A stretch of DNA of 64,000 bases from a virus: positions 2,279 through 66,278 of IMG/VR virus record IMGVR_UViG_3300020157_000004; one strand, 5' to 3'. The notes under the pieces were generated by a model. It had not been told where the DNA came from. It worked only from the letters and a program-made list of their open reading frames with translations, and did not search any database. Every line of letters starts with the position of its first letter. Within the stretch, counting starts at the first letter, position 1. A program made the position numbers and the translations under genes. Positions 7,362 through 64,000 of this stretch are shown here, piece after piece.

Positions 7362-7370
7362 AATTGGTGT

Positions 7371-8390
7371 TCAGTTGTTTTTCTCACTCCAGTTAAGATA
7401 GCCGTCGAAGCTTGGCGGTCTCGGTCCCGCTCCATTTGGGGCGACATTTCGGTTGGCGGCGCGTTCTTGGGCAAGGATTGATTGGATCGGAACTCCCGAG
7501 TCTTGGCTGCCCGTGTTGGACACGCCAAACCGTCTTCCATACTTATAGATCGACCCATCGGGACCGTGATGGAATCCAGACTTGCCGAAGCTCTTTACCA
7601 TATCAGCCTCTTCATCAATGGCCGCCTGTAACTGCCGTGAAAGCTGATTGGATTTATGGGTCGTCGCGTAGATGTCGTCATTGTAACGCCTAGCCGCCAA
7701 GGCGTTCTCCCGGTTTGCGGTGTCTGCGGGACTGCCTTCAAGCGCGAGCTTGTCCTTGATCGGCACATACCCATCAAGCGAATTGGTTTTGTCGTCCCAC
7801 TTCACAGCCCCGTTCGAGTCAGCCTTGGCGTGGATCGAATGAACAAGAGCCGCATGGTCATCAAGGCTGGCTTGCAGTTGCTCTTTGCGAGCTTTCAGGG
7901 CTTGCAGTTGTTGACTGAAAGAATCAGCAATTTCCTGGTCTCCGGAACCATCGTCATACTTGGATGCAGCCCTTTGGTTTTGCCCGGACTGACGAAGCTG
8001 CTCCTGTGATAATCGGCCATCGGAATTGATGCCCGCAACATTTTCGCGCCCCTCAAGCTTCCTCTTCTCGTTGTCAATGAAGTCCTGCTGCTTCCGGTCA
8101 GCCAGGTCAGACTGATAGTCGAAATTGCGTGAGGCCAGATCGTCAGATCTTAGGTTATGGGCGTTGTCATTGTTTATCTTCGCCGCATAGTTGCGGGCGT
8201 TTGCCTCCGCAGCAAGCCGATCGTTATACATCTTGATCGCGTTCTGCTCTGCTCCCTCCGCGCCACCGTAGTCGTTGCCGTAAAACGGAAGGAATACAGT
8301 GCTGCCATCATTATTGGATTGCGGCCTGCTCCCGTAGTAATCGGTAAGCACTGGATTCCATCGGGCCGATTCCTGCGCTTGCGGTGTCAT
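7371..8390 (-). CDS. Putative internal virion (ejection) protein
   Basis: 339 aa, Q/N/A/D-rich helical/coiled-coil character; lies between tail nozzle and giant protein as podovirus ejection genes do. Confidence 0.55.
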   Translation of the reverse strand: MTPQAQESARWNPVLTDYYGSRPQSNNDGSTVFLPFYGNDYGGAEGAEQNAIKMYNDRLAAEANARNYAAKINNDNAHNLRSDDLASRNFDYQSDLADRKQQDFIDNEKRKLEGRENVAGINSDGRLSQEQLRQSGQNQRAASKYDDGSGDQEIADSFSQQLQALKARKEQLQASLDDHAALVHSIHAKADSNGAVKWDDKTNSLDGYVPIKDKLALEGSPADTANRENALAARRYNDDIYATTHKSNQLSRQLQAAIDEEADMVKSFGKSGFHHGPDGSIYKYGRRFGVSNTGSQDSGVPIQSILAQERAANRNVAPNGAGPRPPSFDGYLNWSEKNN

Positions 8391-35956: not shown

Positions 35957-36131
35957 TTCTGGGCCGTTTGTAGCTTGAGAACTCACCAAAGACAAGGACT
36001 CATGCGATCCGAAATGCGCCACCGACATGATACGAAACGGGGATTGAATTCCCCTTGTTATCAATCGTTTATGCCAATGTTAAATACTTTTATTTGCTTC
36101 CGATCAACGATTGGTGCTACTTCTTAAAACC

Positions 36132-37322
36132 ATGAATGAAACATTATTGCCGCCAGTAGAGACCGATTTTGCCCACAAGATACCCGTCCTTCTGCGAGGA
36201 AGGGAAAGTTTTGTGAAAGTTACCGACAGTCGAAAGAGGCCGATCAGGGGTCTTTGGATTCGATCCGACCGTTACTACGCTCAAATGAGCTTGATGGACT
36301 ATACGACCGGAACAAAAAGGGTCCGAAAGGTTCCACTGATGGGGGTCAATACTGTCTCCCAAGCCGTAGTCGCAATGAATCAAATGATTGCGGAACGGCG
36401 TGATGGCAAGCTGGTGGTCTCAAAGGTGCAGCCAACATTCCGGGTGGCTGCCGACCACTACCTTGCTCATGAGCGGTCGATGCACGACGGCAAAAGGGTG
36501 AGCACTCTTCGCGGTGAAGCCAAGTGTCTCAGGTCGTTGGCCAAGTCATTCTCGTCAGAGACAATGGACAAAATCAAACCGCTGGATGTTCGCTCCCACA
36601 TATCCAGACGGCAGAGGATTGATCGGGTCTGTGGCCGGACGGTGAACCACGAGCTAGTGGTATTGGCCAACTTGGTGAAACACTGCCGAATCGAATTTGG
36701 TATGACCAACAACCCGTTGGATGGAGTGGTTGCGCTACCCTACAAATCCGATCGCAGACCCCTTCCAACCACCCTGGAGATACAGACCCTCTGTGACTAC
36801 GCAGTTGCCAACATGATGAATGGTCAGCTTCTTTCCGACTTCGTCCGATTCCTGGCCTCCACCGGCGCAAGACGATCGGAGGCGTTGGTTGTAGCTTGGT
36901 CTGACGTGGACACGGCCATGCGGCGGGTTTGCATCGGTGGATACAGGAAGTCAAAGAACGGACTGGAACGATACGTTGATTTTAATCCAGCCCTTGAATC
37001 ACTGATGGCAGAAATGAAGGCCCGCAAAGACCCGGACTCGCTTTGGCTTTTCCCCACACCAAGGGGAGGGGACATCCCGTCAAGCGGAATGGAAGCAAGC
37101 TTTGCCATTGCCCGCAAAGCCACCAAGCCGGAGCGCATCGTCGGCTGGCATTCAATGCGCCATTATTTCGCCAGCCAGTGCGTCATGGCGGGGATTGATT
37201 TCATGACCATCGCCGCATGGCTTGGCCACCGGGACGGAGGGATTCTTCTCGGCAAAGTTTACGGACACCTGAACGACTCCCACCGTCAGAGCATGGCGGC
37301 GAAGCTGCTTCTTGCCGCATGA
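36132..37322 (+). CDS. int: Tyrosine recombinase / phage integrase
   Basis: STGARRSE (R), KSKN (K), HSMRH (HxxR), LGH, VYGH (Y). Lacks the IntI-specific insertion before patch III. Confidence 0.9.
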   Translation: MNETLLPPVETDFAHKIPVLLRGRESFVKVTDSRKRPIRGLWIRSDRYYAQMSLMDYTTGTKRVRKVPLMGVNTVSQAVVAMNQMIAERRDGKLVVSKVQPTFRVAADHYLAHERSMHDGKRVSTLRGEAKCLRSLAKSFSSETMDKIKPLDVRSHISRRQRIDRVCGRTVNHELVVLANLVKHCRIEFGMTNNPLDGVVALPYKSDRRPLPTTLEIQTLCDYAVANMMNGQLLSDFVRFLASTGARRSEALVVAWSDVDTAMRRVCIGGYRKSKNGLERYVDFNPALESLMAEMKARKDPDSLWLFPTPRGGDIPSSGMEASFAIARKATKPERIVGWHSMRHYFASQCVMAGIDFMTIAAWLGHRDGGILLGKVYGHLNDSHRQSMAAKLLLAA

Positions 37323-37404
37323 TTGGGTTAAATCTGTTTAACAAAGTAAACAATTTGTTCTGGACAGTCATGTTTATGGCTGTATTCTGACAACCACAAC
37401 ATCA

Positions 37405-37611
37405 ATGTCACCCAAGAAAACCACCACCACTGCTCAGAAGAAAAAAACCTTTTGGGGTCTGAAGCCTGAACCGTCCGTTGAAAGATTGGTTCAGAAGGAG
37501 ATCACATCACGGCGTCTTCGGACGGACAGCGGGGAGGCTTGCAGGGGTGCCATCAAGATCGTTCTGGAGGACTGCATAGTGGGACACCTCGGAAGAAAGG
37601 CGAAACGATGA
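37405..37611 (+). CDS. Small basic protein (possible regulator/excisionase)
   Basis: 68 aa, K/R-rich, after an AT-rich spacer containing TGGACA-N16-TATTCT. Confidence 0.45.
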   Translation: MSPKKTTTTAQKKKTFWGLKPEPSVERLVQKEITSRRLRTDSGEACRGAIKIVLEDCIVGHLGRKAKR

Positions 37612-37780
37612 AGTCTTATGGAATCGCTCGGATATTTTTTCTCACACCATAATGAATGGCTAGCCGTGGGGTCATCAGGGATAGATGCGAGTGGAGTTGT
37701 GAGACGCGGTTGGTTTATACAGGTAGTCCACAATCATTCCGACCACGGCAATAAATTGTAACGGCAAACAAAATAACACC

Positions 37781-43946: not shown

Positions 43947-44189
43947 ATGAAGACCAGATTAAAACAGGCTGTGATGCTGGAGATTGCCCCGCCGAAAGTC
44001 CGGGCAGTCCGGGTGTGGAGGATGCACGCGATCGACTTGGGGCACAACCCGTGCGTTGGCCCGTCGTATATGGCCCTCTACAAATGTAACTTCTGCGGAA
44101 CCAGATCAGAATGGAAGACGGCTTCAACCTACACAGAGATCAGGCGGGGCATACCGTGCCCAAAGTGCAACAACCTGAAAGCGTCTTGA
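43947..44189 (+). CDS. Zinc-finger protein
   Basis: CNFC...CPKC; start uncertain. Confidence 0.5.
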   Translation: MKTRLKQAVMLEIAPPKVRAVRVWRMHAIDLGHNPCVGPSYMALYKCNFCGTRSEWKTASTYTEIRRGIPCPKCNNLKAS

Positions 44190-44229
44190 CAAAGTTTGAC
44201 ATTTGATTATTGTCAAACAATGTCAAAAC
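44183..44229. promoter_or_regulatory. Array of TTGACA/TGTCAA boxes (operator/iteron-like)
   Basis: TTGACA at 44186 and 44196, TGTCAA at 44211 and 44221 (10-bp phasing, inverted pairs). Confidence 0.6.
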
Positions 44230-44453
44230 GAAGATGGAAAGTGGTGGAGTCAGGCGAAGCTCCCGGCGAGCTAAAGGACACTGAATATATGTGCTTGGAG
44301 TGTATGAATGAGAGTCTTCTCGGCGTGGTGGGAATCCCCTTGGCCCAGCTTGGCTGCGGGATTGTGTTCAACAATCACAAGCATTGGATGCCCAAAACCA
44401 TCCGGTGCCCCCACTGCAAGGCGACGTTGACCATGAAAGGGGGTTCCAAGTGA
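44220..44453 (+). CDS. Zinc-finger protein
   Basis: CLEC...CPHC; stop overlaps the next GTG. Confidence 0.55.
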   Translation: MSKRRWKVVESGEAPGELKDTEYMCLECMNESLLGVVGIPLAQLGCGIVFNNHKHWMPKTIRCPHCKATLTMKGGSK

Positions 44454-45547
44454 GCTACGGAAAGATTTTCTCAAGCTGTTTTAACGGCTCGATGGTTGGC
44501 GCAGGCCCGGATGTGTTTGCGGTGTGGGCTTACGTGATCGCCAACACGGTGCAAGAACAGGTGGAATTAAACCCGACAATCCTGGCCGCCGTGATCGGTT
44601 GCGACAAATCCAGAATGGTGGAGGCGATTGACCGGCTCTGCCAACCCGATCCTTCGAGTCGAAATAAAGACGAAGATGGTCGAAGACTTGTCAAAGAAGG
44701 TCAATTTGCATACCGCGTTGTCTCTCATTTTATCTATCGAAGCATGAAAGATGAGGACGAAAGAAGGGAATACAACCGTATAAAACAGCGGGAACATCGT
44801 GCAAAGCAAGCAGTTACAGAAGATGTCAAAACTGGTAAAGATTTGTCAAGACAAGCAGAAGCAGAAGCAGAAGCAGAAAAGAAGAAGAGAGCGACCCTTA
44901 AAACTTTTAACTCCGAACCGAAGAAAAAGGAGGAAACCGTCTCAAAGTTAGAAGTCGTGGTAACGGATAAACCGGATTGGAGTTTCCAAGGCGTAGAACT
45001 TCCCGAGTGCTTTCGCACCCACAACTGCGTTCAGGCCATCACTCAATGGTTGGAACACAAGCGGGAGATGAAAACTCCCTACACCACCCAAGGATTGAAA
45101 AACACCTTCAGTCGATGGTCCAAGCAGTTTACCGCCGCGAACCTTCCATCAACCATCGAGTATTGCATCAGCAACGGATGGAAGGGGCTTTACAAAGAAC
45201 GCACCGAGATCATCAGCGCCACCAATACGCGGTTGTCGCAAGAACGAAGGATCATTGAAAACCTCAATGATGTCCACGGACCTGCAAAAATCAGCCGCGA
45301 CACCCTTTCTTTGATGTGTCAGGACGCAGGACAATATCGCGGAACAATGGAATTCATGCTAAAATGCCAGGTTTGCTACGATAATGGAGCCATCTTTGGA
45401 GGTGAAAGGCATGGCTGGATTCCTGTGGTGCCCAAGGAGCCGCTTCCGGAGGGCTTTGTGCCCGTGGTGGCCGAAGAGGCAATCAAACAGCAGGACGACT
45501 ACCTGGACGCGCAGGAAGAGGCCATCCTGAAAAAGAGCAGGAAGTGA
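44450..45547 (+). CDS. Phage replication initiator protein (lambda O-like organisation)
   Basis: YGKIFSS..GSM N-terminal wHTH-like region, REYNRIKQREHR, EAEAEAE linker, C-terminal W..HKRE...SNGWKGL domain. Confidence 0.75.
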   Translation: MSYGKIFSSCFNGSMVGAGPDVFAVWAYVIANTVQEQVELNPTILAAVIGCDKSRMVEAIDRLCQPDPSSRNKDEDGRRLVKEGQFAYRVVSHFIYRSMKDEDERREYNRIKQREHRAKQAVTEDVKTGKDLSRQAEAEAEAEKKKRATLKTFNSEPKKKEETVSKLEVVVTDKPDWSFQGVELPECFRTHNCVQAITQWLEHKREMKTPYTTQGLKNTFSRWSKQFTAANLPSTIEYCISNGWKGLYKERTEIISATNTRLSQERRIIENLNDVHGPAKISRDTLSLMCQDAGQYRGTMEFMLKCQVCYDNGAIFGGERHGWIPVVPKEPLPEGFVPVVAEEAIKQQDDYLDAQEEAILKKSRK

Positions 45548-45574
45548 ATTTTACGGTCAATCCAATAAAACAAA

Positions 45575-45892
45575 ATGAATCCATCCACCGAAACCCCCAC
45601 CCGCGAAGAACTGCTGGCCAATAACGCCGCCCTCCATTCATCCCTGATGACCGCCTACGGCGTGATCGCCCGTCAAGCGATGCAAGTGATAGCCCCACCC
45701 GAAGAACGCAAGGTGTTCATCACTGAAGCCGACATGAACTACACGTTCATGGTCATGGATTCGTGGCTGGAGAACGAAAAGCTCAAGGGCAACAACCCAA
45801 TGGATCAGGCTCAAAACCTCGATGATCTCATGGCTAAAGCCTTAAAATACGAGGAGGAGATGAAAGCGAAAGAAGCGAAACATGAAAATTAA
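45575..45892 (+). CDS. Hypothetical protein
   Basis: 105 aa ATG ORF in operon context. Confidence 0.6.
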   Translation: MNPSTETPTREELLANNAALHSSLMTAYGVIARQAMQVIAPPEERKVFITEADMNYTFMVMDSWLENEKLKGNNPMDQAQNLDDLMAKALKYEEEMKAKEAKHEN

Positions 45893-46139
45893 ACCCCTCG
45901 CTGAAAAAGCACTTCAACTTGTAAACGCTGTAATTCAATTGACCGCCACTGTAATTGCTTTGTTGGCCAGTATTTGCGTTATCGTTAATCTCATCGACAT
46001 ATCCCTGGCCATAGTCGAAGGCTCAAAGTCGTCCCATTCCATGATCTCAAAGTTCATCGTAGTAGCCCAATGGTATGCGGTGGCCCTAATCGCCAAAGCC
46101 GTTAAAAATCAACCCCACCCCAGTCAAACCCTCAAATGA
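45882..46139 (+). CDS. Small membrane protein
   Basis: Two hydrophobic segments; overlaps both neighbours. Confidence 0.5.
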   Translation: MKIKPLAEKALQLVNAVIQLTATVIALLASICVIVNLIDISLAIVEGSKSSHSMISKFIVVAQWYAVALIAKAVKNQPHPSQTLK

Positions 46140-46537
46140 TTAAAGACCTAACCCACGCTAAACTCGTCGCCGCCCTCTCCAAAAACGGAGCCACCATCAA
46201 AGACGAGATGACCGGAACCCAAGCCCACATCCTTCACATGGCCGTAGGCATCTCAGGTGAAGCCGGTGAACTCCTCGACGCCATCAAAAAACACGTCATC
46301 TACCAAAAACCCATCGACCTCGAAAATGTCGTCGAAGAACTCGGTGATCTCGAATTCTACATCGAAGGTCTCAGGCAATCCCTCGCCATCACCCGTCAGG
46401 AAACCATCGACCACAACATCGCCAAACTCTCCGTCCGCTACTCCAAAGGCTCCTACTCCGATCAACAGGCCCATCAACGCGCCGACAAAACCATTGACCC
46501 AACCGCTGATGGTCTGAAGATGTATAAAAAGGGGTAA
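46136..46537 (+). CDS. MazG-like nucleotide pyrophosphohydrolase
   Basis: GISGEAGELLDAIKK, EELGDLEFY, NIAKL..RY. Confidence 0.9.
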   Translation: MIKDLTHAKLVAALSKNGATIKDEMTGTQAHILHMAVGISGEAGELLDAIKKHVIYQKPIDLENVVEELGDLEFYIEGLRQSLAITRQETIDHNIAKLSVRYSKGSYSDQQAHQRADKTIDPTADGLKMYKKG

Positions 46538-46618
46538 GGGGCAGGGGGCTTGAGTCGCGCAGAGGGGCATACCTATTGATACGAGCGCACCCGCGCCCAC
46601 CCCCGCGCCCCCCGCGTC

Positions 46619-47035
46619 TTAAACGCCCGGACAGGCAGGCGATCTAACGCGCTTCACGCTCGCGCATTTTTTTGCGGTCAGGTCCGTGCCGCAAGCAGGA
46701 CACCTGCACAGTGTGAGTTCCAGAGGGGATACCCTATCCCCTATTGCACGCTTTGATATGCCCGTAAACATTGGCGTTTCATCATGTTTGCTCGCGTCCG
46801 AGTAAGAAATGGGCGCGTTACCGAGTGCGTTTCCAAGCGGGTCAATCCACCCCTTCTCTAAGGCTAGGAAGTAAAGCCTCAAACGTGGACTCCCGTTTCG
46901 CGCGTGTCGCTCTGCTAAGCGAATCGAGCTTGGGTGGACGCCTACGACGCCAGCTAAAGCTTCACACGTTAAACCAAGCTTCAGGCGCGCGGTTCTGAAG
47001 TCGAAGTGAACGTCGGAAAGGAAACACCGAGCCAT
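46619..47035 (-). CDS. XRE-type HTH regulator with C-terminal CxxC (repressor candidate)
   Basis: RTARLKLGLTCEALAGVVGVHPSSIRLAE; divergent from the early region. Confidence 0.55.
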   Translation of the reverse strand: MARCFLSDVHFDFRTARLKLGLTCEALAGVVGVHPSSIRLAERHARNGSPRLRLYFLALEKGWIDPLGNALGNAPISYSDASKHDETPMFTGISKRAIGDRVSPLELTLCRCPACGTDLTAKKCASVKRVRSPACPGV

Positions 47036-47242
47036 TTACAGTAAGTTAACGCTAAACATTGGCCTTTTCTCCCTCTTTCCCCTTCCCTTTTCAAGTCTTT
47101 TTTCCCTCTTTCTTTCCCTCTCCCCTTCATTGAGGGGAAGAACGGGCGCGTCATAGCGCGCGGCGACTACGTCGCCAAAAAGTCCGCCGTGACAGATTTC
47201 AAAACAGGGTGCCGGTCGATGAAAATTGAATCGGTGGTCGCC

Positions 47243-47875
47243 GCCAGTCGGTCGGCCCGCTCTTCGCAAGTTTATCGGATAGCACTGCTCGGATCACAGT
47301 TGCGGCCCTCATGGCTAACGCTAAAACATCCGGCTAGGCTGACAGCCAACCCACCTTATGGGTCGCTTGGAAACGTCGGGGCAAAATGACCACGGAAAAC
47401 GACTATGGGTCGGATACGTGGTGAGAAAGGTCAGACGTTCAAATGTCAGCGGAGGCCGGTCACTGAATAATCAGCGTGACGCAAAACTGCACCGTTCAGG
47501 AAGGCGAAAGGAATCGCTTGTGGCTATCACGAATCTAGGGAATCACCTCCACGGACAATAGGAATCCCGTGGTTAAATAAAGGAGCTTGGCTTATGGCCC
47601 GCAAGGGTCACAAGTGCGCCGACTTACAACCGGGCAACAGGCAGGCGTTGGCTAAAGCGCATCGTTGGGGCAATTTGCTTCTAAGGTGCTAGTCCTTCCA
47701 ACGTCCGAAAGTGGCTCATCCTACCTAACTAGACAGCACGGAAAGACGTGCGCCGCGCAACGACGCGAGGCGAGGGGACGGGTTTGCCTGTCCGTTTGCT
47801 CACTCCACCGTCCTCACGAAGGGCGACTGGTTTAGGAAGTTTTCCGCCCCCTAGCGGGTTCGCCTGCTGGGGGGT
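47243..47875 (+). ncRNA. Candidate large structured non-coding RNA
   Basis: No credible ORF; more than 10 helices including nested ones, GCAA/UUCG/UUUG loops, and 5'/3' closing helix GCCAGTCG (47243-50) / CGACTGGT (47824-31). Confidence 0.65.
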
Positions 47876-47986
47876 TCCCTCTCAAGAAAAACGCGCCTCA
47901 TCGTGGCGAGAGGGTGAACATGGGTTTCCGTGGCATTTCATGCAACGGTTGTCCGTGGCCAAGCGTAGTCGTCGGTAAGTTTCCCC

Positions 47987-48436
47987 ATGAATACCTGCAC
48001 CTCCGTGTCCATCTTCGGCTCCACGTTCACCGGCGTCGCAACGGTCTCCGCCAGCGGCAATCAGAAGGTCTCCATCCCCACTCGCAAGCAGTGGAAAGAG
48101 GCCACGGGCTGCACCTTGGCTTACGCCAAACAGCACTATGGTGCCTTCCATCGGGAACAGTCGGGCAAACTCGCCGGTCCGACCGCCGCCATTCTGGCCA
48201 ACGGCACCATGCTTGTCAGATCGGTGAGTTGCTCTCCTAGCGGGACCGTCACCTGTGTCCTCATCCCCTCGAACAGCAAGACTCTCGCTGTGACACTGCC
48301 CAAGCCGAAGGCGGCTCCTGCGGTTGACTACACGAAGTTGTCCACCACGGAGTTGATGGCCTTGCTCGCCGCCCGTCAGGCGGCGGAAGCGGCGAAGGAT
48401 GAGGCTGCCATCGCCACGGCTCTCAGCGGTATCTGA
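47987..48436 (+). CDS. Early hypothetical protein
   Basis: 149 aa, biased codon usage, Ala-rich C-terminus. Confidence 0.65.
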   Translation: MNTCTSVSIFGSTFTGVATVSASGNQKVSIPTRKQWKEATGCTLAYAKQHYGAFHREQSGKLAGPTAAILANGTMLVRSVSCSPSGTVTCVLIPSNSKTLAVTLPKPKAAPAVDYTKLSTTELMALLAARQAAEAAKDEAAIATALSGI

Positions 48437-48529
48437 GCGTCGGTAGGTCGGCCACATGGGGTCGGGAAGGTTCCCGGTCTCGTGTGGCCACACCTGCTTG
48501 CGGTCAACGTCCAACAGAAAGGAATCACA

Positions 48530-48973
48530 GTGAAAGTCGAAGTGAATCAGAAGGTGTTGAAGCTCACAACGGGTGAGAAAGTTCGGTATTTCGTCATGTC
48601 TGGTGCAATTCGGGAGTGCCGCGTGTTGAATCTGACGCATGATGGCCTCTCGGTTTACACCGACTCCGGGGTTTTTCTCCCGGTGGCCGAGTTCGGAGAC
48701 ACGTGGTGGCTCGCCGACGGCAAGTCCGACTACGCCGCCAAGCTGGCAGCCGATGACTTCGATGCGGAGGAGTCGTTCGATAAGAACGTGATGACCACCA
48801 CCAAGCACACGATGTTCGCCGCCTTGGCGAATGGGTCTGGATTGGTAGCGGCCCGCCTTCGGCAGGTCAACGGGGTCGAGCGCGAGGATGGGTCGGGACG
48901 GTGCTGGCTCGTAGTCGGGGTCTGTTCGCAGAGCGACAACATCGTGACCCGGTTCGTGAAGACCACGGACTAG
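48530..48973 (+). CDS. Early hypothetical protein
   Basis: GAAAGGA RBS then GTG 48530. Confidence 0.6.
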   Translation: MKVEVNQKVLKLTTGEKVRYFVMSGAIRECRVLNLTHDGLSVYTDSGVFLPVAEFGDTWWLADGKSDYAAKLAADDFDAEESFDKNVMTTTKHTMFAALANGSGLVAARLRQVNGVEREDGSGRCWLVVGVCSQSDNIVTRFVKTTD

Positions 48974-49071
48974 TCGCGCAACGGCCCGGCGCAAGCCTCA
49001 TTGCGCCCTCTGGACATAGGGCATGGGTGAAAGACTCCCGTGCCTTATGCAACAGGGTTGAAAGGAACAGG

Positions 49072-49476
49072 ATGAAAACAAAAAAAGCACATTCAAAAAC
49101 AGGGATTCGGGTTGGCAAATTGAAAATCGGCGGCAAGTGTCTGTCCGTTTTTGTTTACCAGTTCCACACCCCGGAAGACAGGGAAACCTTCCCGGCGGAG
49201 ATTCACGCAAACCAAGCCGTTCAAGTCATGGACTTCATCCGCTCAGGAAGAGCGGGTAACATTGTTACCACTCAGGAAATCCATGTGCTTAGGCTTCTAA
49301 GACTGATACGCGAAGAGGTTGACGGATTGCGCCTAAGCACGGCGAGCGTCCGATTTTACTTCGATGTCCCCGGCAAGCCGGGTGAACTCATGAAAATTGA
49401 CCCTACAGAAGACGGAGACTTGTCTGCAAGGGTTCCGGGCGGATTCTTTACCGCGCGATCAGTTGAGCTTTTTTAA
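49072..49476 (+). CDS. Early hypothetical protein
   Basis: GAAAGGA RBS then ATG 49072. Confidence 0.6.
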   Translation: MKTKKAHSKTGIRVGKLKIGGKCLSVFVYQFHTPEDRETFPAEIHANQAVQVMDFIRSGRAGNIVTTQEIHVLRLLRLIREEVDGLRLSTASVRFYFDVPGKPGELMKIDPTEDGDLSARVPGGFFTARSVELF

Positions 49477-49525
49477 TTCCCCGTCCTGCCACCTCGGGAA
49501 ACATGCCAACTGAAAGGATACAATT

Positions 49526-49687
49526 ATGACTGACAGTTACAGAAAAAAGCTGGGGCGGGCCATCGACCGGCTCGCCTCGCAGATACACAGGAGCAAGAGC
49601 ACAGGCCGCCTGACGGGCCGACGACTGGCGAAGCAGCAGGCAAAGTTGGAAGCGATGGCCGACCGCATGGCGGCCACAACGCAGTAG
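49526..49687 (+). CDS. Small basic early protein (53 aa; below track cut-off)
   Basis: GAAAGGA RBS; MTDSYRKKLGRAIDRLASQ... Confidence 0.55.
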   Translation: MTDSYRKKLGRAIDRLASQIHRSKSTGRLTGRRLAKQQAKLEAMADRMAATTQ

Positions 49688-49779
49688 CAGAGCGTCTGTA
49701 AATCGAGGGGGTGGGGGAAAGCCTCCGCCCCTTCGGACTTGCTGACGGTCAACCTCAACGAAGAAAGGACAGCGGATAT

Positions 49780-50103
49780 ATGGGTTACTACCTGGAGACA
49801 GACAACACCCGCCTCAAGGCGGACTGGTTGATTAAGACTGCGGGTGCAGTCGAAGTGAAGACGCAGCCCTTGTGGACTGACATCCCAAAGGGCAAGACGC
49901 TGATTGCGGTGGTGGACAACGGCCACTTCGAGGCGGCAATGATCGCCTCGCCGGAGGATCAGTTCGACCGCATCAAACGGGCCGAGCAGATGGGCGACCG
50001 GCGTCCGAAGCGGTTCCTCCTGATGGACACCGACACCGTGAAGGCGATGTGCCCGAACTGGTGGGGCGACACTCAGGAACGAATGCGGGGGTCAACAGCA
50101 TGA
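49780..50103 (+). CDS. Early hypothetical protein
   Basis: RBS then ATG 49780; MGYYLET...VVDNGHFEAA...DRRPK. Confidence 0.65.
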   Translation: MGYYLETDNTRLKADWLIKTAGAVEVKTQPLWTDIPKGKTLIAVVDNGHFEAAMIASPEDQFDRIKRAEQMGDRRPKRFLLMDTDTVKAMCPNWWGDTQERMRGSTA

Positions 50104-50288
50104 GTGCCCACACCTCAACAAAGGTGCGGAAGCGGGCCAAGTTCGTTGACCCCCTCAGCAGGGCAGCGGTCAGTGAAATGCGGCGAATCGCCAAGGCTCA
50201 TGTGGTAAAAGGGGAGCCGGTCAAGCTGACGCAGCGTCAGGCCCACCACGTAGCGGTTCGCAAGACCAAGACGGGAGGTGGAAAGTGA
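50100..50288 (+). CDS. Small basic protein
   Basis: ATGA overlap with the upstream gene. Confidence 0.5.
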   Translation: MSAHTSTKVRKRAKFVDPLSRAAVSEMRRIAKAHVVKGEPVKLTQRQAHHVAVRKTKTGGGK

Positions 50289-50488
50289 TTCACAAAAGCG
50301 TGCCCCACTACTACCGATTCCTAATCCTTCGGAAGGCGGGACTGCCAATGAGTGTGGCCCACCGGCAGGCTACGTTCTGGAAGGACAGCCGTGTAATGGC
50401 CCTGCTCAAGGCCCACGGTTCCATGTTCTTCAGAAGCAGGAAGACCAACCGGGAAGCGCAGGGGAAAATGGTCCGGGCAAACGAGTGA
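50285..50488 (+). CDS. Small basic protein
   Basis: GGAGG RBS, GTGA overlap. Confidence 0.5.
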   Translation: MIHKSVPHYYRFLILRKAGLPMSVAHRQATFWKDSRVMALLKAHGSMFFRSRKTNREAQGKMVRANE

Positions 50489-50619
50489 CTAAGCACGGCA
50501 CTGTAATTGCGGGTTGAATTACAGTGCCCTCTTTGTTCCTTGTTGGAATGAACCGCAGTTGTTTACGCCCTATAAACAAATGGCGGTCGGTTAATCAGGG
50601 CATGTTAGAAGGCTACACA

Positions 50620-50850
50620 GTGAATCCTACTACTACGTCTCCCTCACCGGCAACCGCAACCCCGTCCACTGGCAAGGTGGCGTCGCTCGTCCTCGTCTTT
50701 CAGAAGGACAAGGAGACTCCCGGCACCACCCGGTTCAAGGAGTTCGTGCCGTCCGGCAACGACAAAGATGCGGTCGTCGGGACGCTCTACATCAAGAAGA
50801 GCAACCCCCTCCACGCTCAGCCGGTGCTGACCATCACCATCGGCACCTAA
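50620..50850 (+). CDS. Small beta-rich protein
   Basis: KETPGT.RF.E...VGTLYIKK; followed by a terminator; start uncertain. Confidence 0.6.
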   Translation: MNPTTTSPSPATATPSTGKVASLVLVFQKDKETPGTTRFKEFVPSGNDKDAVVGTLYIKKSNPLHAQPVLTITIGT

Positions 50851-50871
50851 GCGCAGGGTTGAAACGAAACC

Positions 50872-50902
50872 GGGGCGGCTCAGCAATGGGCCGCCCCTTT
50901 CT
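50872..50902 (+). terminator. Rho-independent terminator
   Basis: GGGGCGGCTCA-GCAA-TGGGCCGCCCC-TTTCT. Confidence 0.7.
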
Positions 50903-50916
50903 GACGATACAATTAT

Positions 50917-51216
50917 ATGATTGATGAACCTGAGAAACCCGTCTGGAACCCCGAAGGCGGAGAAGATTGCAACGGGTTGAAAAACAAGGAGCGCGCCGAG
51001 AATGGCGAGCTGCTGCTCCGTCAAAGCCGGAGCATGAACGTGAGTCCTGATATTGGGATGCCCAACTCCGGCGACTTCGAGCTGGCCATGATCGACGTGC
51101 TTCACTACTTCAACCGTGAAGGATACGACATGGGACCAGGCAGCGAGGACATTGTTGACAACCTGATGAATGCACACGCCGAGTTCCTTGAGCAGTCGGG
51201 CTGTCCACCAGTATGA
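50917..51216 (+). CDS. Acidic hypothetical protein
   Basis: 99 aa ATG ORF. Confidence 0.55.
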   Translation: MIDEPEKPVWNPEGGEDCNGLKNKERAENGELLLRQSRSMNVSPDIGMPNSGDFELAMIDVLHYFNREGYDMGPGSEDIVDNLMNAHAEFLEQSGCPPV

Positions 51217-51397
51217 AAAGCCACCGCATCACACTCGGTCTGGGCGTGCGGCTCTTCCAGTTAGGCTGGTCGATTGGCAAGGGTGCCTTCAACCGGGAGT
51301 ATATCATCAGCCCCAAGGGTTCAATCTGGACGCTGGTTAAAATCGGACGCGCCTTCTGGGCCGAACCGTTCACAGTGCATGACCGTTACTAACAACT

Positions 51398-51565
51398 ATG
51401 AAAGATCGCATTGACCGCATTGAGTATCTGAAGCTCAACGCCAAGAAGAACAACGCAGACTACACCACGATCGCGATAGTGGCGGTCGTGTTCGTCATCG
51501 CCCTTGTGTTCACATTCCTGCTGGGCTTTGTGTCCGGCATGGAGCATCTGCAAGGACTGCCGTGA
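51398..51565 (+). CDS. Small membrane protein (55 aa)
   Basis: ATG 51398; IAIVAVVFVIALVFTFLLGFV transmembrane helix. Confidence 0.5.
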   Translation: MKDRIDRIEYLKLNAKKNNADYTTIAIVAVVFVIALVFTFLLGFVSGMEHLQGLP

Positions 51566-51676
51566 GCACCACCAACCGGCACATCCGACGGTTCAAGCCA
51601 AGCTCCAAAGGCAATGGAGTTCTGGTCATGTCGGTGAAACCGGGCAACCCAAAACCGAAAGGAAAGGATGGAGACA

Positions 51677-52042
51677 ATGAGAACCAAGGCGAGATCAACC
51701 GAGGTGGTGGACTGGCTGACAAAGCATGGCATTGCACACAAGGTTGAAGGGACTTGGGTTTGGTTGCTCTGGACAGACCTGAGAAATGATAAGATGCTGA
51801 GGGATGCTGGCTTCCGGTTTGCCAAGAGTCGTAACAGTTACTTCCATGTGTCAGACCGGTTCCTGCCGGGGCAGTTTGCTTCATGGCTGCACACCGAACC
51901 GGTTCCCTACCCTCCCGGAAAGTCCTACAACAAACCGGGGCGCAAGCCGGGCAGCAAACCCAAGGCAGCCGTCGTGGCATCGGCGGTCAGCGACCGTGAG
52001 TATGAGGTTGTGAATGATATGCCACCACCACCGCCTCCTTGA
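51677..52042 (+). CDS. Hypothetical protein
   Basis: GTWVW...LRDAGFRF motif; RBS GGAG. Confidence 0.6.
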   Translation: MRTKARSTEVVDWLTKHGIAHKVEGTWVWLLWTDLRNDKMLRDAGFRFAKSRNSYFHVSDRFLPGQFASWLHTEPVPYPPGKSYNKPGRKPGSKPKAAVVASAVSDREYEVVNDMPPPPPP

Positions 52043-59294: not shown

Positions 59295-62200
59295 TCAGCG
59301 GCGGCTGCGACGGCTGCGGCTGCGTGATCTGGAGCTTCCGCGACGCACGCTGACTCTTGGGGTGGTGGAACCACCAGTCCGGCGTCTCGAACTACCGGCC
59401 CGGCGTCGCAACCTGCTGACCCGACCGGAACCCGTGTCGGCCAGTTGTTCCACGTCACTGCTTTCAGAGACACCGTCAGGGGACTGAACCTGATTGCGGC
59501 TGCGGCCACCACCGCTCCCTCTTGAGCGAAGCTTCACTCCACCTGTTTGGGTGGAGGACTCTGAATCTAATTCCTCGCCAGCGTCGCGGGTGCGCGCGCG
59601 CGTAGTTCTGGAAGATGATCCACCACCCTCACTCCTTGGCGTCCGGCTTGGTGATGTGTTAATTACAGAGCCGGACGAGTCGGAGAAAAAGGACTCACCC
59701 ATCTGCCATCCACCCAAAGTCTTGCCCCATGCCACCCGCTGTGAAGGGGACAACGCGGCAAGGCGCTGCTCATACTCGGAGTCGGTCAGCGTCTTGCCTC
59801 CGTTAGACCTCGTGGCCGGATTCATTGCCGAGTAGTCGCGACGAACTGCGGCCTCCGCCTTCTTCTCGTCCATCCCACGGTCATGGATGTAGTAGTCGGT
59901 CAACCGCTGCATCTGACGCTTGGCTTCCCTCATGTGCTCCGCTGCCCCGGCGCTGTCGCCCGCAAGCATGGACTCGTGGGCCTGGTAGAGTGCGTCAGCC
60001 CACTTGGTCTTGATGCCGGTGGTGGGTCCGACTGCATACGGGATTGCCTTGGAGGCGTTGCTCTTTGGGTCAACAATCTTTCCCGCCTCCGTCATGGCCG
60101 ACTGTCCAGATACTCTTGACTTATACCCAAGCATCGACCTCAAGTCAGACGCAAGCGGGGCGAACCTGTCCGCGAGACCTTTTATCACAATGTCCCAATC
60201 CTCGGGCGGAAGGACAAAGAATGCGGTCATTGATTTTACAGCATCCGTTATGAGCGTGAGAGGAAGAAGTTTGGACCCAATGTCGAACCCCTTTCCGCCC
60301 TGCTGAATGTTCAGTGCTGTGAGCACGACATCCCCAACCTGACCAAGGTTTGACAACATTGCCGACGCACTGCGAAGCGTGAGTCCGTTACCGTTCCAGA
60401 AGGAGGCATCGCTGGGGATTATCTTTCCGAACTGGTGAAGAACCTTCCGGTCATATTGACCGGGCACTTCAAGGCTCGCGATTCCAAACAGGAAGGCGGC
60501 CAGCCCAAGCATCATTGCAGTGGATAGCGCGTGCGTGAAACGGGATGGATTCGACCGGCCCGCCACAGACCGGAACTCACCGAACAGCTTGCCGGTGTAG
60601 TCAAAGATGTAGCCCCTCAATGAGACGGCAGCCGACAGCATACGGTCGGACTTGATTGCCTGCGCGCGGTTGATTCCGTTCGGTGAATTGATAAGCCCGA
60701 TAATCAATCGCTTGAGGCTGTCCATCTGCGCGTCCGTAAACAACGGAACATCGGCGGTCCCGCCGCCGCTTCTCTGATGGTAGTCAAGCAGGACGTGCTC
60801 CAGCGGTATGCCTGCCATCTGAAGCATTTCCCGGATGTCGGCAGTGTGCTGTAATTTGTCACTGCTAAGGAACCTGCGGGACATATCTTCCGAATTTACA
60901 AGCGTGTCCCTGGTTACTCCCGGACGAGCGCCGTGCAGCAGTGCGGCCCGCTTCAACACCTTGACCAGATTATCAACGATGCCTTTGACCTGTGTGTTGA
61001 GAACGAGGTCCGAATTAGTAAGCCCGAACTTTGACTCTATGCCTTTGGTGGTTCCGGAGAACGCCGCCCCGGCCACCCGCAATGCTTTTCGAGTCTTCGG
61101 GAACGGTGAAAGGAATGAGCGGGAGAGGTCTTGGTCGTCTTGGAACTCGGCAGCTTCACGCAAAGCCTGCCTCACGGTTTCCATAAACGAACCCTTGCGA
61201 CCAAAGCCAAGGCCGCGCACATCCTCGATGCCGTCCTGAATGTATTTGCGATAGAGCGATTCAGCCCACTGAAACACGCTGGCATAGGTTGCCGGATGCT
61301 TGCTCTTCAGATAGCGAAGCGAGCTTTGCAGGCCGGGAACCGAGGCTGCAATTCTGGTGGCATACTTTGAAATCACAGCAGCGGAACCCGCCAGTGATTT
61401 GATGAGGGCAACCGTGCGCCCGAACTCGTTGAGCTTCGAGCTGACCAGATACACCGCTGTCATGCCCTGCGTAATGTTTCGGAGGGCAACCTTCGGACTC
61501 ATCAATAGCGATCTCACAGCAAGTCCGATACCGCCACGAATGACTTTGCCCAGCGGTGAAGGCGTGGTGTCCCGGCGCAGCAACACTTCATTCAGCCTGC
61601 GGACAGCGAAGTGCAACAGCTCCAGTTGAGATAGGCTCCATCCGGTCGGCAGACCAATCGGATTGCCGGGCCTTGTTCCCGGTTCAACCACTGTGATTCT
61701 TGATTGTAGTTCGTGCTCGGCCTGAATCAAAGCCTTGGCCAGTTCCAGAAGCGAAGAGGCCGCTGCCCTCGCTTCCATGCTTCTCGCGTCCTGATCGGTC
61801 AGTGTTCCGTGATCGTAGAACACGCTGGGGAGTTCAAGCAGGCCAGCCTGATTGCTGAATTCGCTGTTCTTATTTACAGTGTCAACGGCTCCAAGGATGT
61901 CCTGCTTCGACTCCACTGCTGGCTGAATTCGCTTGTCTGCCAGCTTCATATACTGGGTCAGCTCGGAGGACACCTCGTTGATGACGGTATCCCTCACCGA
62001 CCTTCCAGTGCCAGTCGGGTATGCGGCCACGAGTGCATCGACCAGCTCACCAACCGTTGCAAACTTCATGCCCCCACCGCTGGCTTCCACCAGTGCGGCC
62101 ACCGATCGCAAGGCAGTCCTCATGTTGCCTGACCGGATGATGGCGAGATCGTCGCGGGTGGAGTCGAGGACGTGCGAGGTGAGCACGTCGAACTTACCGG

Positions 62201-64000
62201 CCAACCCATTCCAACCCTTCACCACCGGGTCGGTTGAAGTCGCCGTCAGGTCGGTGGCAGGCGTGAACGCTGGCAGCTTCAGGAGGTCGGCCAACTGGCT
62301 GGACACTTCCACGCCGTCGGGGTTGATGATGCGCGTGAACTCAAACTTGCCAACACTCGCGGCAAACCGGCTTAGCTGTCGGCCAGCCACTTCCACTCCG
62401 GTTGCCTGATCTCCCCGCTTCTGGTTTACAGTAAGCAGTGCCCTCGTGTATTCGAGCATCCGTTTGAACCACGCCATGTCCTCGGCTGTAATCACATGGC
62501 CGCTTGGCAGGACACTGCCTGCCGCCAATAACGATCCGGCCCGGCGGCCAATGTTACCGGCTTCGTTCTGCATCCGCCGATACAAGTCCATGTTCCCGTT
62601 GAATTCAGGATGGGACTTCAGTGCGGCACTTCGCAGCGCTGGAAGATCGCGTGCCCAGAATCTATCCCGGTTGGATACGGCTGCGATTTCACCCACTGTG
62701 TTTGAGTAGTCGGCGGCCATCGCCTTTGCGCGACCACCCAGAACGCCACCAAGGTTCGATGCCACCTGATGAATCTGCGTCACGAACTCAATGGAGTTCC
62801 ACTTGAGCTGGAGTCGGGAAGGGGAAAGGCTGGTCGAGCTGTCGAAGTTCGACGGGTTGAGCAGCACCGGCAAGTCGTGCTCAAGCACCAGCTTTATCCC
62901 GCGATAGGTGGGCGTGTCGTAGCCAAGTGAGCTTGGCGTGTTGGGGCTTATCCCGCTGACGTAATCTGATTCCGCAGCCTCGTAGCCGGTGACATACCTC
63001 TCCGCGCTGTCACGCCATTGCTCAATGCTTCGCTGAACCTTGTCGGGGAAGCTCTGGAAATTGAAGTCGCTGACTGTGATTGAAACCTCGGGTTGGTCGA
63101 GGCTTCCAATCGAGAACGGTTCGAGTCGAACGCGATCCGCCGCTGATGCCGAGTTGGCAGTTGAGGCGTGGCTGTTCAGCATCCGTTTGTAGTATCCGTT
63201 CAACGCGCTTTCGGACAACTGGCGCAGCCGCCTGAACTCGGGAGATGCCCGCAGCGATTCAAACACACCCACCGCAATGGAGTAGGCGTCGAGGTCGGCC
63301 TTTAGTTTGGCCGCTTCGCGCCCGCTCGCATTCGCCTGTGCCGCCAGCTTTGCCCGCTCCTTGCTCTTCATCCTCACCAAGGAATCGAACATGGTCTTGG
63401 CCGCCTTCTTGTCACCGTTTGAAACGCGCAAGGCAATCTCCGCCAGCTTGTCCATCGGAACGTCACCGCGCTCCTGTTCCACCAAGGTTGTCACGGCATC
63501 CCGGAAAACATCAGAGGATGCCATCATCTTGAAGAGGGTATCGAGCGTGTTCTCCGCCACCCCAAACTCGCCTGAGTGGCCTTGCAGCGGCAGCAACGGT
63601 GCATCGCCAACCGGATCACGCATCCATTCCAGTATCCGCTTGCCCGCCTCAATTGCGGCATCAGGGCTTGGTTCACCCGCCGCCCGGTAGGAGGCGTTGT
63701 CCACGACCGACGCAAGCCTGGAGGCAAACACAGCCACGGCAGACTGGTTCAACCTCAGCCACTCAACCATCTGCGAGTTTATGACATCACCGGTCAGCCC
63801 GCCTTCTCCGGCCATTGCCAGCACAGCATCGGACAGAACCAGCTCTGCAAGGCTGGCGTCTTCCGAAGCTTCGCGTGAACCCGCCATCAGCTTGTTTACC
63901 TTGTCCCGTTTGGCCTTCTCTTCAGCCGTCTGCCGGTCCTTCAGCATCGAGAACGAAAGGTCGATTTGCTGTAATACAGCATTCACCGCGAGGGTGAAGG
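59295..64000 (-). CDS. Giant virion protein, C-terminal part (5'-truncated by window edge), ending in an Arg/Ser-rich tail
   Basis: The frame stays open upstream of the called GTG 63986 to the window edge (..FTLAVNAVL..); helical Ala/Leu-rich body; tail RRGSSRSRSRSRRSRR. Confidence 0.8.
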   Translation of the reverse strand, partial: FTLAVNAVLQQIDLSFSMLKDRQTAEEKAKRDKVNKLMAGSREASEDASLAELVLSDAVLAMAGEGGLTGDVINSQMVEWLRLNQSAVAVFASRLASVVDNASYRAAGEPSPDAAIEAGKRILEWMRDPVGDAPLLPLQGHSGEFGVAENTLDTLFKMMASSDVFRDAVTTLVEQERGDVPMDKLAEIALRVSNGDKKAAKTMFDSLVRMKSKERAKLAAQANASGREAAKLKADLDAYSIAVGVFESLRASPEFRRLRQLSESALNGYYKRMLNSHASTANSASAADRVRLEPFSIGSLDQPEVSITVSDFNFQSFPDKVQRSIEQWRDSAERYVTGYEAAESDYVSGISPNTPSSLGYDTPTYRGIKLVLEHDLPVLLNPSNFDSSTSLSPSRLQLKWNSIEFVTQIHQVASNLGGVLGGRAKAMAADYSNTVGEIAAVSNRDRFWARDLPALRSAALKSHPEFNGNMDLYRRMQNEAGNIGRRAGSLLAAGSVLPSGHVITAEDMAWFKRMLEYTRALLTVNQKRGDQATGVEVAGRQLSRFAASVGKFEFTRIINPDGVEVSSQLADLLKLPAFTPATDLTATSTDPVVKGWNGLAGKFDVLTSHVLDSTRDDLAIIRSGNMRTALRSVAALVEASGGGMKFATVGELVDALVAAYPTGTGRSVRDTVINEVSSELTQYMKLADKRIQPAVESKQDILGAVDTVNKNSEFSNQAGLLELPSVFYDHGTLTDQDARSMEARAAASSLLELAKALIQAEHELQSRITVVEPGTRPGNPIGLPTGWSLSQLELLHFAVRRLNEVLLRRDTTPSPLGKVIRGGIGLAVRSLLMSPKVALRNITQGMTAVYLVSSKLNEFGRTVALIKSLAGSAAVISKYATRIAASVPGLQSSLRYLKSKHPATYASVFQWAESLYRKYIQDGIEDVRGLGFGRKGSFMETVRQALREAAEFQDDQDLSRSFLSPFPKTRKALRVAGAAFSGTTKGIESKFGLTNSDLVLNTQVKGIVDNLVKVLKRAALLHGARPGVTRDTLVNSEDMSRRFLSSDKLQHTADIREMLQMAGIPLEHVLLDYHQRSGGGTADVPLFTDAQMDSLKRLIIGLINSPNGINRAQAIKSDRMLSAAVSLRGYIFDYTGKLFGEFRSVAGRSNPSRFTHALSTAMMLGLAAFLFGIASLEVPGQYDRKVLHQFGKIIPSDASFWNGNGLTLRSASAMLSNLGQVGDVVLTALNIQQGGKGFDIGSKLLPLTLITDAVKSMTAFFVLPPEDWDIVIKGLADRFAPLASDLRSMLGYKSRVSGQSAMTEAGKIVDPKSNASKAIPYAVGPTTGIKTKWADALYQAHESMLAGDSAGAAEHMREAKRQMQRLTDYYIHDRGMDEKKAEAAVRRDYSAMNPATRSNGGKTLTDSEYEQRLAALSPSQRVAWGKTLGGWQMGESFFSDSSGSVINTSPSRTPRSEGGGSSSRTTRARTRDAGEELDSESSTQTGGVKLRSRGSGGGRSRNQVQSPDGVSESSDVEQLADTGSGRVSRLRRRAGSSRRRTGGSTTPRVSVRRGSSRSRSRSRRSRR

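Follow-up and report, generated by a model that had tools for sequence, protein, structure and literature searches.

The locus and its genomic setting

The DNA analysed here, hereafter the window, is a stretch of 64,000 nucleotides (64 kb) that comprises bases 2279–66278 of the linear IMG/VR virus record IMGVR_UViG_3300020157_000004 (66,278 bases, estimated to be 83% complete), and its element of interest is a gene-free gap on the + strand (47036–47986, Table 1), for which an initial annotation had proposed a large and ornate non-coding RNA of about 600 nt (47243–47875). The whole stretch is present in three lake-water runs, which are a possible source of the DNA. An integrase gene (36111–37322) indicates that the phage is temperate. 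Upstream of the gap, the + strand encodes this integrase together with RecT, DnaB, MazG and a lambda-O-like replication protein; an AAA ATPase and a vWA-type protein are encoded downstream. The gap itself lies directly after a single divergent helix-turn-helix (HTH) gene and in the midst of the + strand block, and its placement "at the head of the early region" in the initial annotation was thus loosely worded. The number of tRNA and tmRNA genes found in the window was zero.

Absence of coding signal in the gap

Coding potential was scored with a codon log-likelihood, for which 22 long genes of the phage (own scores of 0.09 to 0.24 per codon) served as the training set. In the gap, the score was negative in all six frames for every scored segment starting at 47180–47810, with no positive frame found over 47180–47900. 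The ORF-free part (47036–47881) is the larger of only two gaps of at least 450 nt in the 64 kb that are without an open reading frame (ORF) of at least 90 aa, and the longest ORF within the gap amounts to 77 aa. By codon statistics, the gap is non-coding, and the earlier statement that no credible ORF covers the element is borne out. Recoding of 47243–47875 was considered and rejected, with neither TAG read as Q nor table 4 opening a long ORF; tandem duplication as the origin of the gap was likewise rejected, with the direct repeats being found at inconsistent offsets. A scan for promoters and terminators returned one weak sigma-70 site on the + strand (47443–47471) and no + strand terminator.

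Table 1. Features of the gap and of the two flanking genes; positions refer to the window.
Feature	Position	Strand	Remarks
Xre/Cro-type HTH protein, 138 aa	46619–47035	−	HTH_31, E 0.0037, below the Pfam cut-off
Gene-free gap	47036–47986	+	Flanked by the divergent HTH gene and, on the + strand, the 149-aa gene
Long-range closing helices (predicted)	47243–47249/47825–47831; 47250–47256/47618–47624	+	Mean ensemble pair probabilities 0.88 and 0.81
Domain 1, multi-branch nested helices	47326–47463	+	z −4.30 on +, −3.38 on −
Weakly structured, sequence-conserved core	47449–47643	+	Small hairpins 47502–47519, 47549–47572, 47595–47610
Mini-ORF, 32 codons (putative)	47594–47692 (with AAAGGAG from 47579)	+	ATG 47594, 8 nt after AAAGGAG
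3' domain, many G-U pairs	47640–47835	+	GGCGUUGG/CCAACGUC enclosing two hairpins, then further helices
13-bp hairpin with UUCG loop	47846–47875	+	Three G-U pairs; pair probability 0.99; no U-run after it
HDV-like ribozyme match, RF02682, sub-threshold	47877–47942	+	Predicted cleavage site 47876/47877
Start-codon helix (predicted)	CAUGGG 47919–47924/CCCAUG 47984–47989	+	Minimum free energy fold of 47842–47990
First downstream gene, 149 aa	47987–48436	+	Codon score 0.154

Predicted folding compared with chance

The stability of predicted folds was compared with that of shuffled sequences; as a control, 162 segments of 200 nt each, taken from coding DNA (1–8200), gave a mean z of −0.17, with a standard deviation of 0.95 and a minimum of −3.24. 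For the whole 633 nt (47243–47875), z was −2.48 on the + strand (2 of 120 shuffles as stable) and −1.63 on the − strand (7 of 120); with 20 shuffles, the values were −2.64 and −2.33, respectively. Folding beyond chance is patchy and found only in parts of the stretch. The helices described initially are nevertheless all there in the letters: the five pairs given with coordinates are exact and complementary, the end helix including one G-U pair, the five hairpins given by range are present, and all of them recur in the minimum free energy (MFE) fold of 47243–47875, with mean pair probabilities mostly of 0.8–1.0. The closing helices and the architecture of one ornate molecule that they would create are predictions only.

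Domain 1 is built of the nested helices CCGGCU/GGCCGG, GCUGACA/UGUCAGC, AACGUC/GACGUU, ACCACG/CGUGGU and CGACU/GGUCG together with the side hairpin ACCCA/UGGGU. None of 200 shuffles folded as well on the + strand, and one of 200 did so on the − strand; the nested inverted repeats that make up the domain are real, yet since their pairs are nearly all Watson-Crick they do not tell the strands apart. In the 3' domain, the GGCGUUGG/CCAACGUC helix is followed by GCACG/CGUGC, CGCG/CGCG, GGCGAG/UUUGCU with GGACGGG/CCUGUCC, and GUCCU/AGGGC. Here the signal is strand-specific owing to the many G-U pairs, including the three in the 13-bp hairpin: over 47640–47880, z was −2.97 on the + strand (1 of 200 shuffles) and −0.98 on the − strand (33 of 200). 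The idea that G-U pairs favour the + strand is in keeping with this asymmetry. Because of its three G-U pairs, the 13-bp hairpin is possible only as + strand RNA; the scan did not call it a terminator.

Structure continues beyond this hairpin, with z at −3.18 for 47842–47990 (0 of 200 shuffles). The start-codon helix predicted in this segment pairs the start codon at 47987 and encloses two hairpins (47928–47948 and 47949–47978): the start codon would thus be paired within a fold that is more stable than chance, as is to be expected of a leader. A CsrA-type sponge of GGA motifs was considered for the region and rejected, with 15 GGA observed versus 11.9 ± 2.5 expected (p 0.15) and 7 versus 4.5 in the core (p 0.07).

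Comparison with a relative from run X4

Run X4, a freshwater metagenome from a different study, contains three short contigs of one relative. A contig of 197 nt aligns with 47449–47643, showing 5 differences and 1 gap in 195 nt (97% identical), and a contig of 206 nt aligns with 47861–47979 with 10 differences and 1 gap; past 47979 the latter continues into the coding region and is unlike the window there, still with the start of an ATG-led ORF. The third contig (293 nt) matches 48463–48523 only, which is largely intergenic. Judged from these contigs, the non-coding stretches of the relative are better conserved than the adjacent coding DNA, which argues for a function at the nucleotide level.

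The differences themselves bear on the predicted folds, those at 47932–47935 most of all. Of four differences listed for the core, three affect unpaired positions and one, a C-to-T exchange at 47497, keeps the partner G47287 as a G-U pair. At 47932–47935, the relative has U-A in place of a G-A mismatch, U-G in place of C-G and G-U in place of A-U, with one base added to the loop: with these four listed changes, the hairpin at 47928–47948 turns from 4+4 pairs around the G-A mismatch into an unbroken 9-bp stem, and its predicted free energy changes from −8.1 to −9.7 kcal/mol. In the folding model, the differences thus preserve a plain hairpin that lies inside the fold pairing the start codon of the next gene.

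Search for known families and homologues

The initial annotation had been unable to match the element to a named family, and this agrees with an Rfam 15 scan, which gave no match at the gathering score in the 64 kb. In permissive scans (E up to 10 over 46900–48100; E up to 1 over 44000–52000), the only notable match was to the HDV-like ribozyme model RF02682, below its gathering score, and GOLLD, ROOL, HEARO, OLE, raiA, introns and phage antisense families were absent: by those models, the element is not a member of any Rfam family, GOLLD and ROOL included.

The collection of homologues that had been suggested as a check, attempted with blastn, nhmmer and a covariance model, found no homologue with DNA beyond the X4 contigs. 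By blastn, the region had no match in 50,697 phage records or 72,556 plasmids, and exact 22–23-mers from the conserved core were found nowhere in IMG/VR, JGI metagenome contigs or genome contigs. Neighbouring proteins (the 149-aa ORF, HTH, DnaB, AAA ATPase) served as anchors in IMG/VR and revealed no relative; in tblastn searches against the phages, the 149-aa ORF had no match, and DnaB had only matches of <60% identity, in 747 records. On the basis of these searches, the phage has no close relative among the 50,697 deposited phages. HMMER searches of 1.84 billion representatives returned two remote relatives of the 149-aa protein and two of the last 60 aa of the next ORF, the alignments of which led to no loci in IMG/VR or JGI contigs.

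More loci were reached through the N-terminal domain of the replication protein (46 in IMG/VR and 13 in genomes). Against the 46, blastn and nhmmer of the RNA gave nothing (best E 1.3), and a covariance model of Domain 1 run on all 59 plus the window gave a best non-self E of 0.61; Rfam found only 3 tRNAs in the 11 of 59 loci with long gaps, and the RNA had no matches in the 5 genomes behind five of the loci. Searches of further genomes with the RNA returned matches of 21–47 nt (E 0.0009–0.01) in 10 of 401 genomes from the phylum of genome G001 and in 5 of 401 from that of G002, six of them on the GC-rich stretch 47734–47784. We read these matches, from 802 genomes of two phyla, as chance or composition; a 21-nt identity at locus L069 lies inside a gene that we take to be that of ribosomal protein L15.

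A possible cis-acting leader and its alternatives

The reading that we favour, tentatively and at somewhat less than an even chance, is that of a long structured + strand leader acting in cis on the downstream genes, beside the divergent HTH regulator. The gap would be transcribed on the + strand as the untranslated leader, roughly 0.75–0.9 kb in length, of a small-gene operon that begins at 47987; this leader would carry independently folding domains (47326–47463 and 47640–47875), and the fold at its 3' end (47919–47989) would base-pair the AUG of the first gene. Leader and HTH regulator together could set the timing of downstream expression and so form a control module of a temperate phage, with the likely means being occluded translation initiation and/or attenuation at the strong hairpins. 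This reading is suggested because the strand-specific folding (47640–47880, the 13-bp hairpin) adjoins + strand genes, and its context appears switch-like because the integrase marks a temperate phage and the HTH gene diverges from the gap. Transcription itself, the ends of the transcript and any regulatory effect are inferred.

Several points weigh against a leader. A length of 0.9 kb is unusual for one, and no RNA run is listed for this DNA. Taken together, the 633 nt fold just modestly better than shuffled sequences (z −2.48), the core is at chance level (z −0.65, 43 of 200 shuffles as good), and Domain 1 folds nearly as well on the − strand and could hence be a DNA palindrome. The comparison rests on a single relative and three short contigs, and some differences, lying close to where the aligned pieces end, are not listed (7 of 10 in the 47861–47979 contig and 2 of 5 in that of the core). 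Furthermore, X4 departs from the window in the 3' arm of the start-codon helix (by eye CCC, five more letters, then ATG), so that this helix would at best be kept with a bulge.

Closest to the initial annotation would be a free-standing structured non-coding RNA of about 630 nt (47243–47875) that has its own promoter, ends at the 13-bp hairpin and acts in trans, belonging to the size class of ROOL and GOLLD and unrelated to them in sequence. The closing helices are predicted at 0.88 and 0.81, two domains fold beyond chance, the terminal hairpin is very stable, the core is matched at 97% identity by a relative that has diverged in the coding DNA alongside and, with no match in Rfam, such an RNA would be new. 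However, the closing helices are predictions of the folding model, the middle third is not structured beyond chance, and the hairpin has no U-tract and was passed over by the terminator scan. Structure and conservation also extend beyond 47875 as far as the start codon, as would be more fitting for a leader, and the window is without tRNA genes, unlike many ROOL and GOLLD loci (PMC12286853). What stands of the large ornate RNA is thus a non-coding region of which parts fold beyond chance with a + strand bias, whereas its middle third is at chance and the X4 sequence fits a leader that pairs the start codon; we consider the free-standing RNA unlikely, and less likely than a regulatory leader. 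Possible, if rather doubtful, is a control region that acts as DNA, of the kind found in lysis-lysogeny switches, with promoters and HTH operators spread over a long spacer and RNA folds that are incidental to inverted repeats. The divergent HTH gene abuts the gap, the nested perfect inverted repeats of Domain 1 fold on both strands, and the conserved core is unstructured, all of which such a region would accommodate. The 7-mer CCACGGA/TCCGTGG also occurs 4 times within 47390–47958, out of 13 copies in the window, with CCACGGA twice upstream and UCCGUGG twice near the start codon as internal complementary repeats; yet some 7-mer is present in at least 4 copies in 14% of 500 shuffles (p 0.14), and the 7-mer was rejected as a set of operators or antisense pairs. 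DNA sites would moreover leave unexplained why the 3' half, rich in G-U pairs, folds on the + strand only, the X4 changes at 47932–47935 are wobble-type and conserve an RNA hairpin, and 950 bp is far longer than usual operator regions.

The remaining alternatives concern smaller parts of the gap. The match to RF02682 begins 2 nt after the 13-bp hairpin and could signify a genuine HDV-like self-cleaving ribozyme, whose cut at 47876/47877 would release the upstream RNA, ending in a cyclic phosphate, from a downstream mRNA that starts with a 5'-OH. It spans the full model (1–74) at 29.2 bits (E 0.0038 in 1.2 kb); nested P1 (7 bp), P3 (3 bp) and P4 (5 bp) form the MFE of 47877–47945 and are also seen in the cmscan alignment, a 2-bp P1.1 (C47899-G47916, A47900-U47915) is possible by inspection, and C47934, as the would-be catalytic C, takes the first position of J4/2. 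HDV-like ribozymes are moreover described in phages beside tRNAs (PMC10879173). On the other hand, the score is below the gathering score of 44, the match is absent at the gathering threshold in the whole window, E rises to 0.025 in 8 kb, and by inspection P2 consists of just GAAA 47886–47889/UUUC 47936–47939, which lies 5 nt from P3 and competes with a hairpin at 47933–47943. In addition, X4 carries T at 47934 and is without any C in this junction, and a C-to-U exchange at the catalytic cytosine inactivates HDV-like ribozymes, with no rescue known (PMC10879173); the X4 changes also improve the competing hairpin 47928–47948. The ribozyme reading is contradicted by the only comparative data at sequence level, and we hold it to be improbable. 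We give a similarly small chance to the gap encoding one or more very small proteins, for example from the 32-codon mini-ORF, with the conservation of the core then stemming from this gene and its ribosome site. Here the AAAGGAG is a strong Shine-Dalgarno-like sequence, of a kind that by eye precedes only about 5 of the 43 gene starts in the phage, most upstream regions being A-rich; X4 shows no difference at this site or over the initial 50 nt of the ORF. Nevertheless, the codon score of the mini-ORF is −0.13, no family match was found for it, short DNA matches of its region in other genomes are at chance level, and with zero X4 differences it allows no comparison of synonymous and non-synonymous changes; AGGAG with a start codon is, by our own estimate, expected by chance about once in four such regions, and an ORF of 99 nt cannot explain 950 nt. 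The boldest reading would be a new class of phage RNA of about 630 nt, in which one closed molecule (47243–47831 plus the terminal hairpin) has its 3' end cut by a divergent HDV-like ribozyme at 47876/47877, and ribozyme and start-codon folds alternate and so couple release with translation; this we regard as very improbable indeed.

Neighbouring genes and further observations

The divergent HTH gene is likely the regulator of the locus. Atlas neighbours of its protein are HTH clusters with scores of 0.83–0.88, which are leads only. The codon score of the ORF is atypical (−0.05 versus 0.09–0.24 for the training genes), and a word search with it found no relative and not even itself, whereas the 149-aa neighbour did find itself; the gene may have been acquired recently, or may in reality start elsewhere. 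Directly upstream of its start lies a C/T-rich tract of ~75 nt (47060–47135) that is purine-rich on the − strand, followed by two short GC hairpins (47144–47175); the tract may be a leader or promoter region of the HTH gene.

On the other side of the gap, the 149-aa protein has no family match and only a self-hit in the word search, and its structure model is of low confidence (pLDDT 61.8). Its ORF and the next one (48482–48973, 163 aa) share a frame and are separated by a single TGA at 48437. HMMER searches with this TGA read through found no protein that spans the junction, and the two ORFs therefore look like separate genes and not like a read-through or recoded one. The 163-aa ORF is probably two genes: the first likely starts at GTG 48531 behind AAAGGA, with a similar GTGAAAGT start in the X4 loose end, and the second encodes a conserved protein of ~60 aa from ATG 48791 with an invariant REDGSGRCW motif, which is common to two proteins of 68–70 aa with 54% identity.

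The G+C content is 0.56–0.63 at 47600–49100 compared with roughly 0.44–0.55 in the upstream replication genes (44000–46400), and this rise is suggestive of a mosaic module to which the 3' half of the gap as well as the first small genes would belong. The patch of 60 nt at 48463–48523, kept in X4 with 6 differences and 1 gap between flanks that are both unlike, holds by eye a GGCCACA/UGUGGCC stem around a small hairpin and could represent a further conserved non-coding element of this module. Promoters of the Bacteroidota type were considered and rejected: the motif TAnnTTTG, the consensus of such promoters, is not enriched, with 13 copies in the window versus about 22 expected and, by eye, none beside a gene start.

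The only other gap of at least 450 nt without an ORF of at least 90 aa (37323–37780) lies between the integrase and RecT genes and is a plausible site for attP or an early promoter. Two very large ORFs are found on the − strand, at 3–7361 (2453 aa, open at the window end) and at 59295–63986 (1563 aa). A weak Rfam match to the DUF2800 RNA motif on the − strand at 45860–46011 (23.2 bits versus 60.2, E 0.83) lies inside a coding region and is most likely due to chance.

Comparison with known systems

If real, the element would be an unclassified and unusually long structured RNA element at the regulatory junction of a temperate freshwater phage with hardly any sequenced relatives. Some phages use such elements to set immunity and the timing of early genes, and the large phage RNAs ROOL and GOLLD are, to our knowledge, still without a known function. 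As the support comes from thermodynamic folding and from three short contigs that belong to one relative, we regard the element as a reasonable candidate for follow-up and not as a discovery. Its position outside all Rfam families and the contradiction of the HDV-like reading by the only comparative data are useful negatives in themselves.

The candidate resembles ROOL and GOLLD in its size class (about 600–800 nt), its location in a phage, its many hairpins and the lack of an obvious protein partner, and in the case of GOLLD also in its source: GOLLD was first seen in lake metagenomes, as its name records (PMC12286853), and the window too is from lake water. It differs from both in that no Rfam model matches the region, also with E allowed up to 10, and in that their multi-stem architecture with pseudoknots is supported by covariation, whereas that of the candidate is predicted and one third of it is at chance. 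A further difference concerns the setting: both families are encoded in phages or prophages and often lie near tRNA islands, a link that is frequent and not obligatory (PMC12286853), whereas the 64 kb analysed here contain no tRNA genes. With the HDV-like family (RF02682, including the 'theta' ribozymes of phages), the candidate shares nested P1, P3 and P4, a possible P1.1, a C at the first position of J4/2 and a place in a phage directly 3' of a structured RNA; it differs in its sub-threshold score, a very weak P2, short J1/4 and J4/2, the absence of a tRNA partner and a catalytic C that is not kept in the one relative seen.

Long structured leaders that control downstream genes are also known from phages, such as the CI RNA of P4, the c4 immunity leader of P1 and 5' untranslated regions that occlude start codons. 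The candidate is like these in being an untranslated + strand region before an operon and beside a repressor-type gene, with complementary repeats and a predicted pairing of the start codon; it differs in that it has no match to the antisense or leader families of Rfam, a library that presumably includes the C4 family, in that its repeats are not beyond chance, and in being several-fold longer. In kind, the element is nevertheless most like the long structured leaders and regulatory RNAs known from temperate phages.

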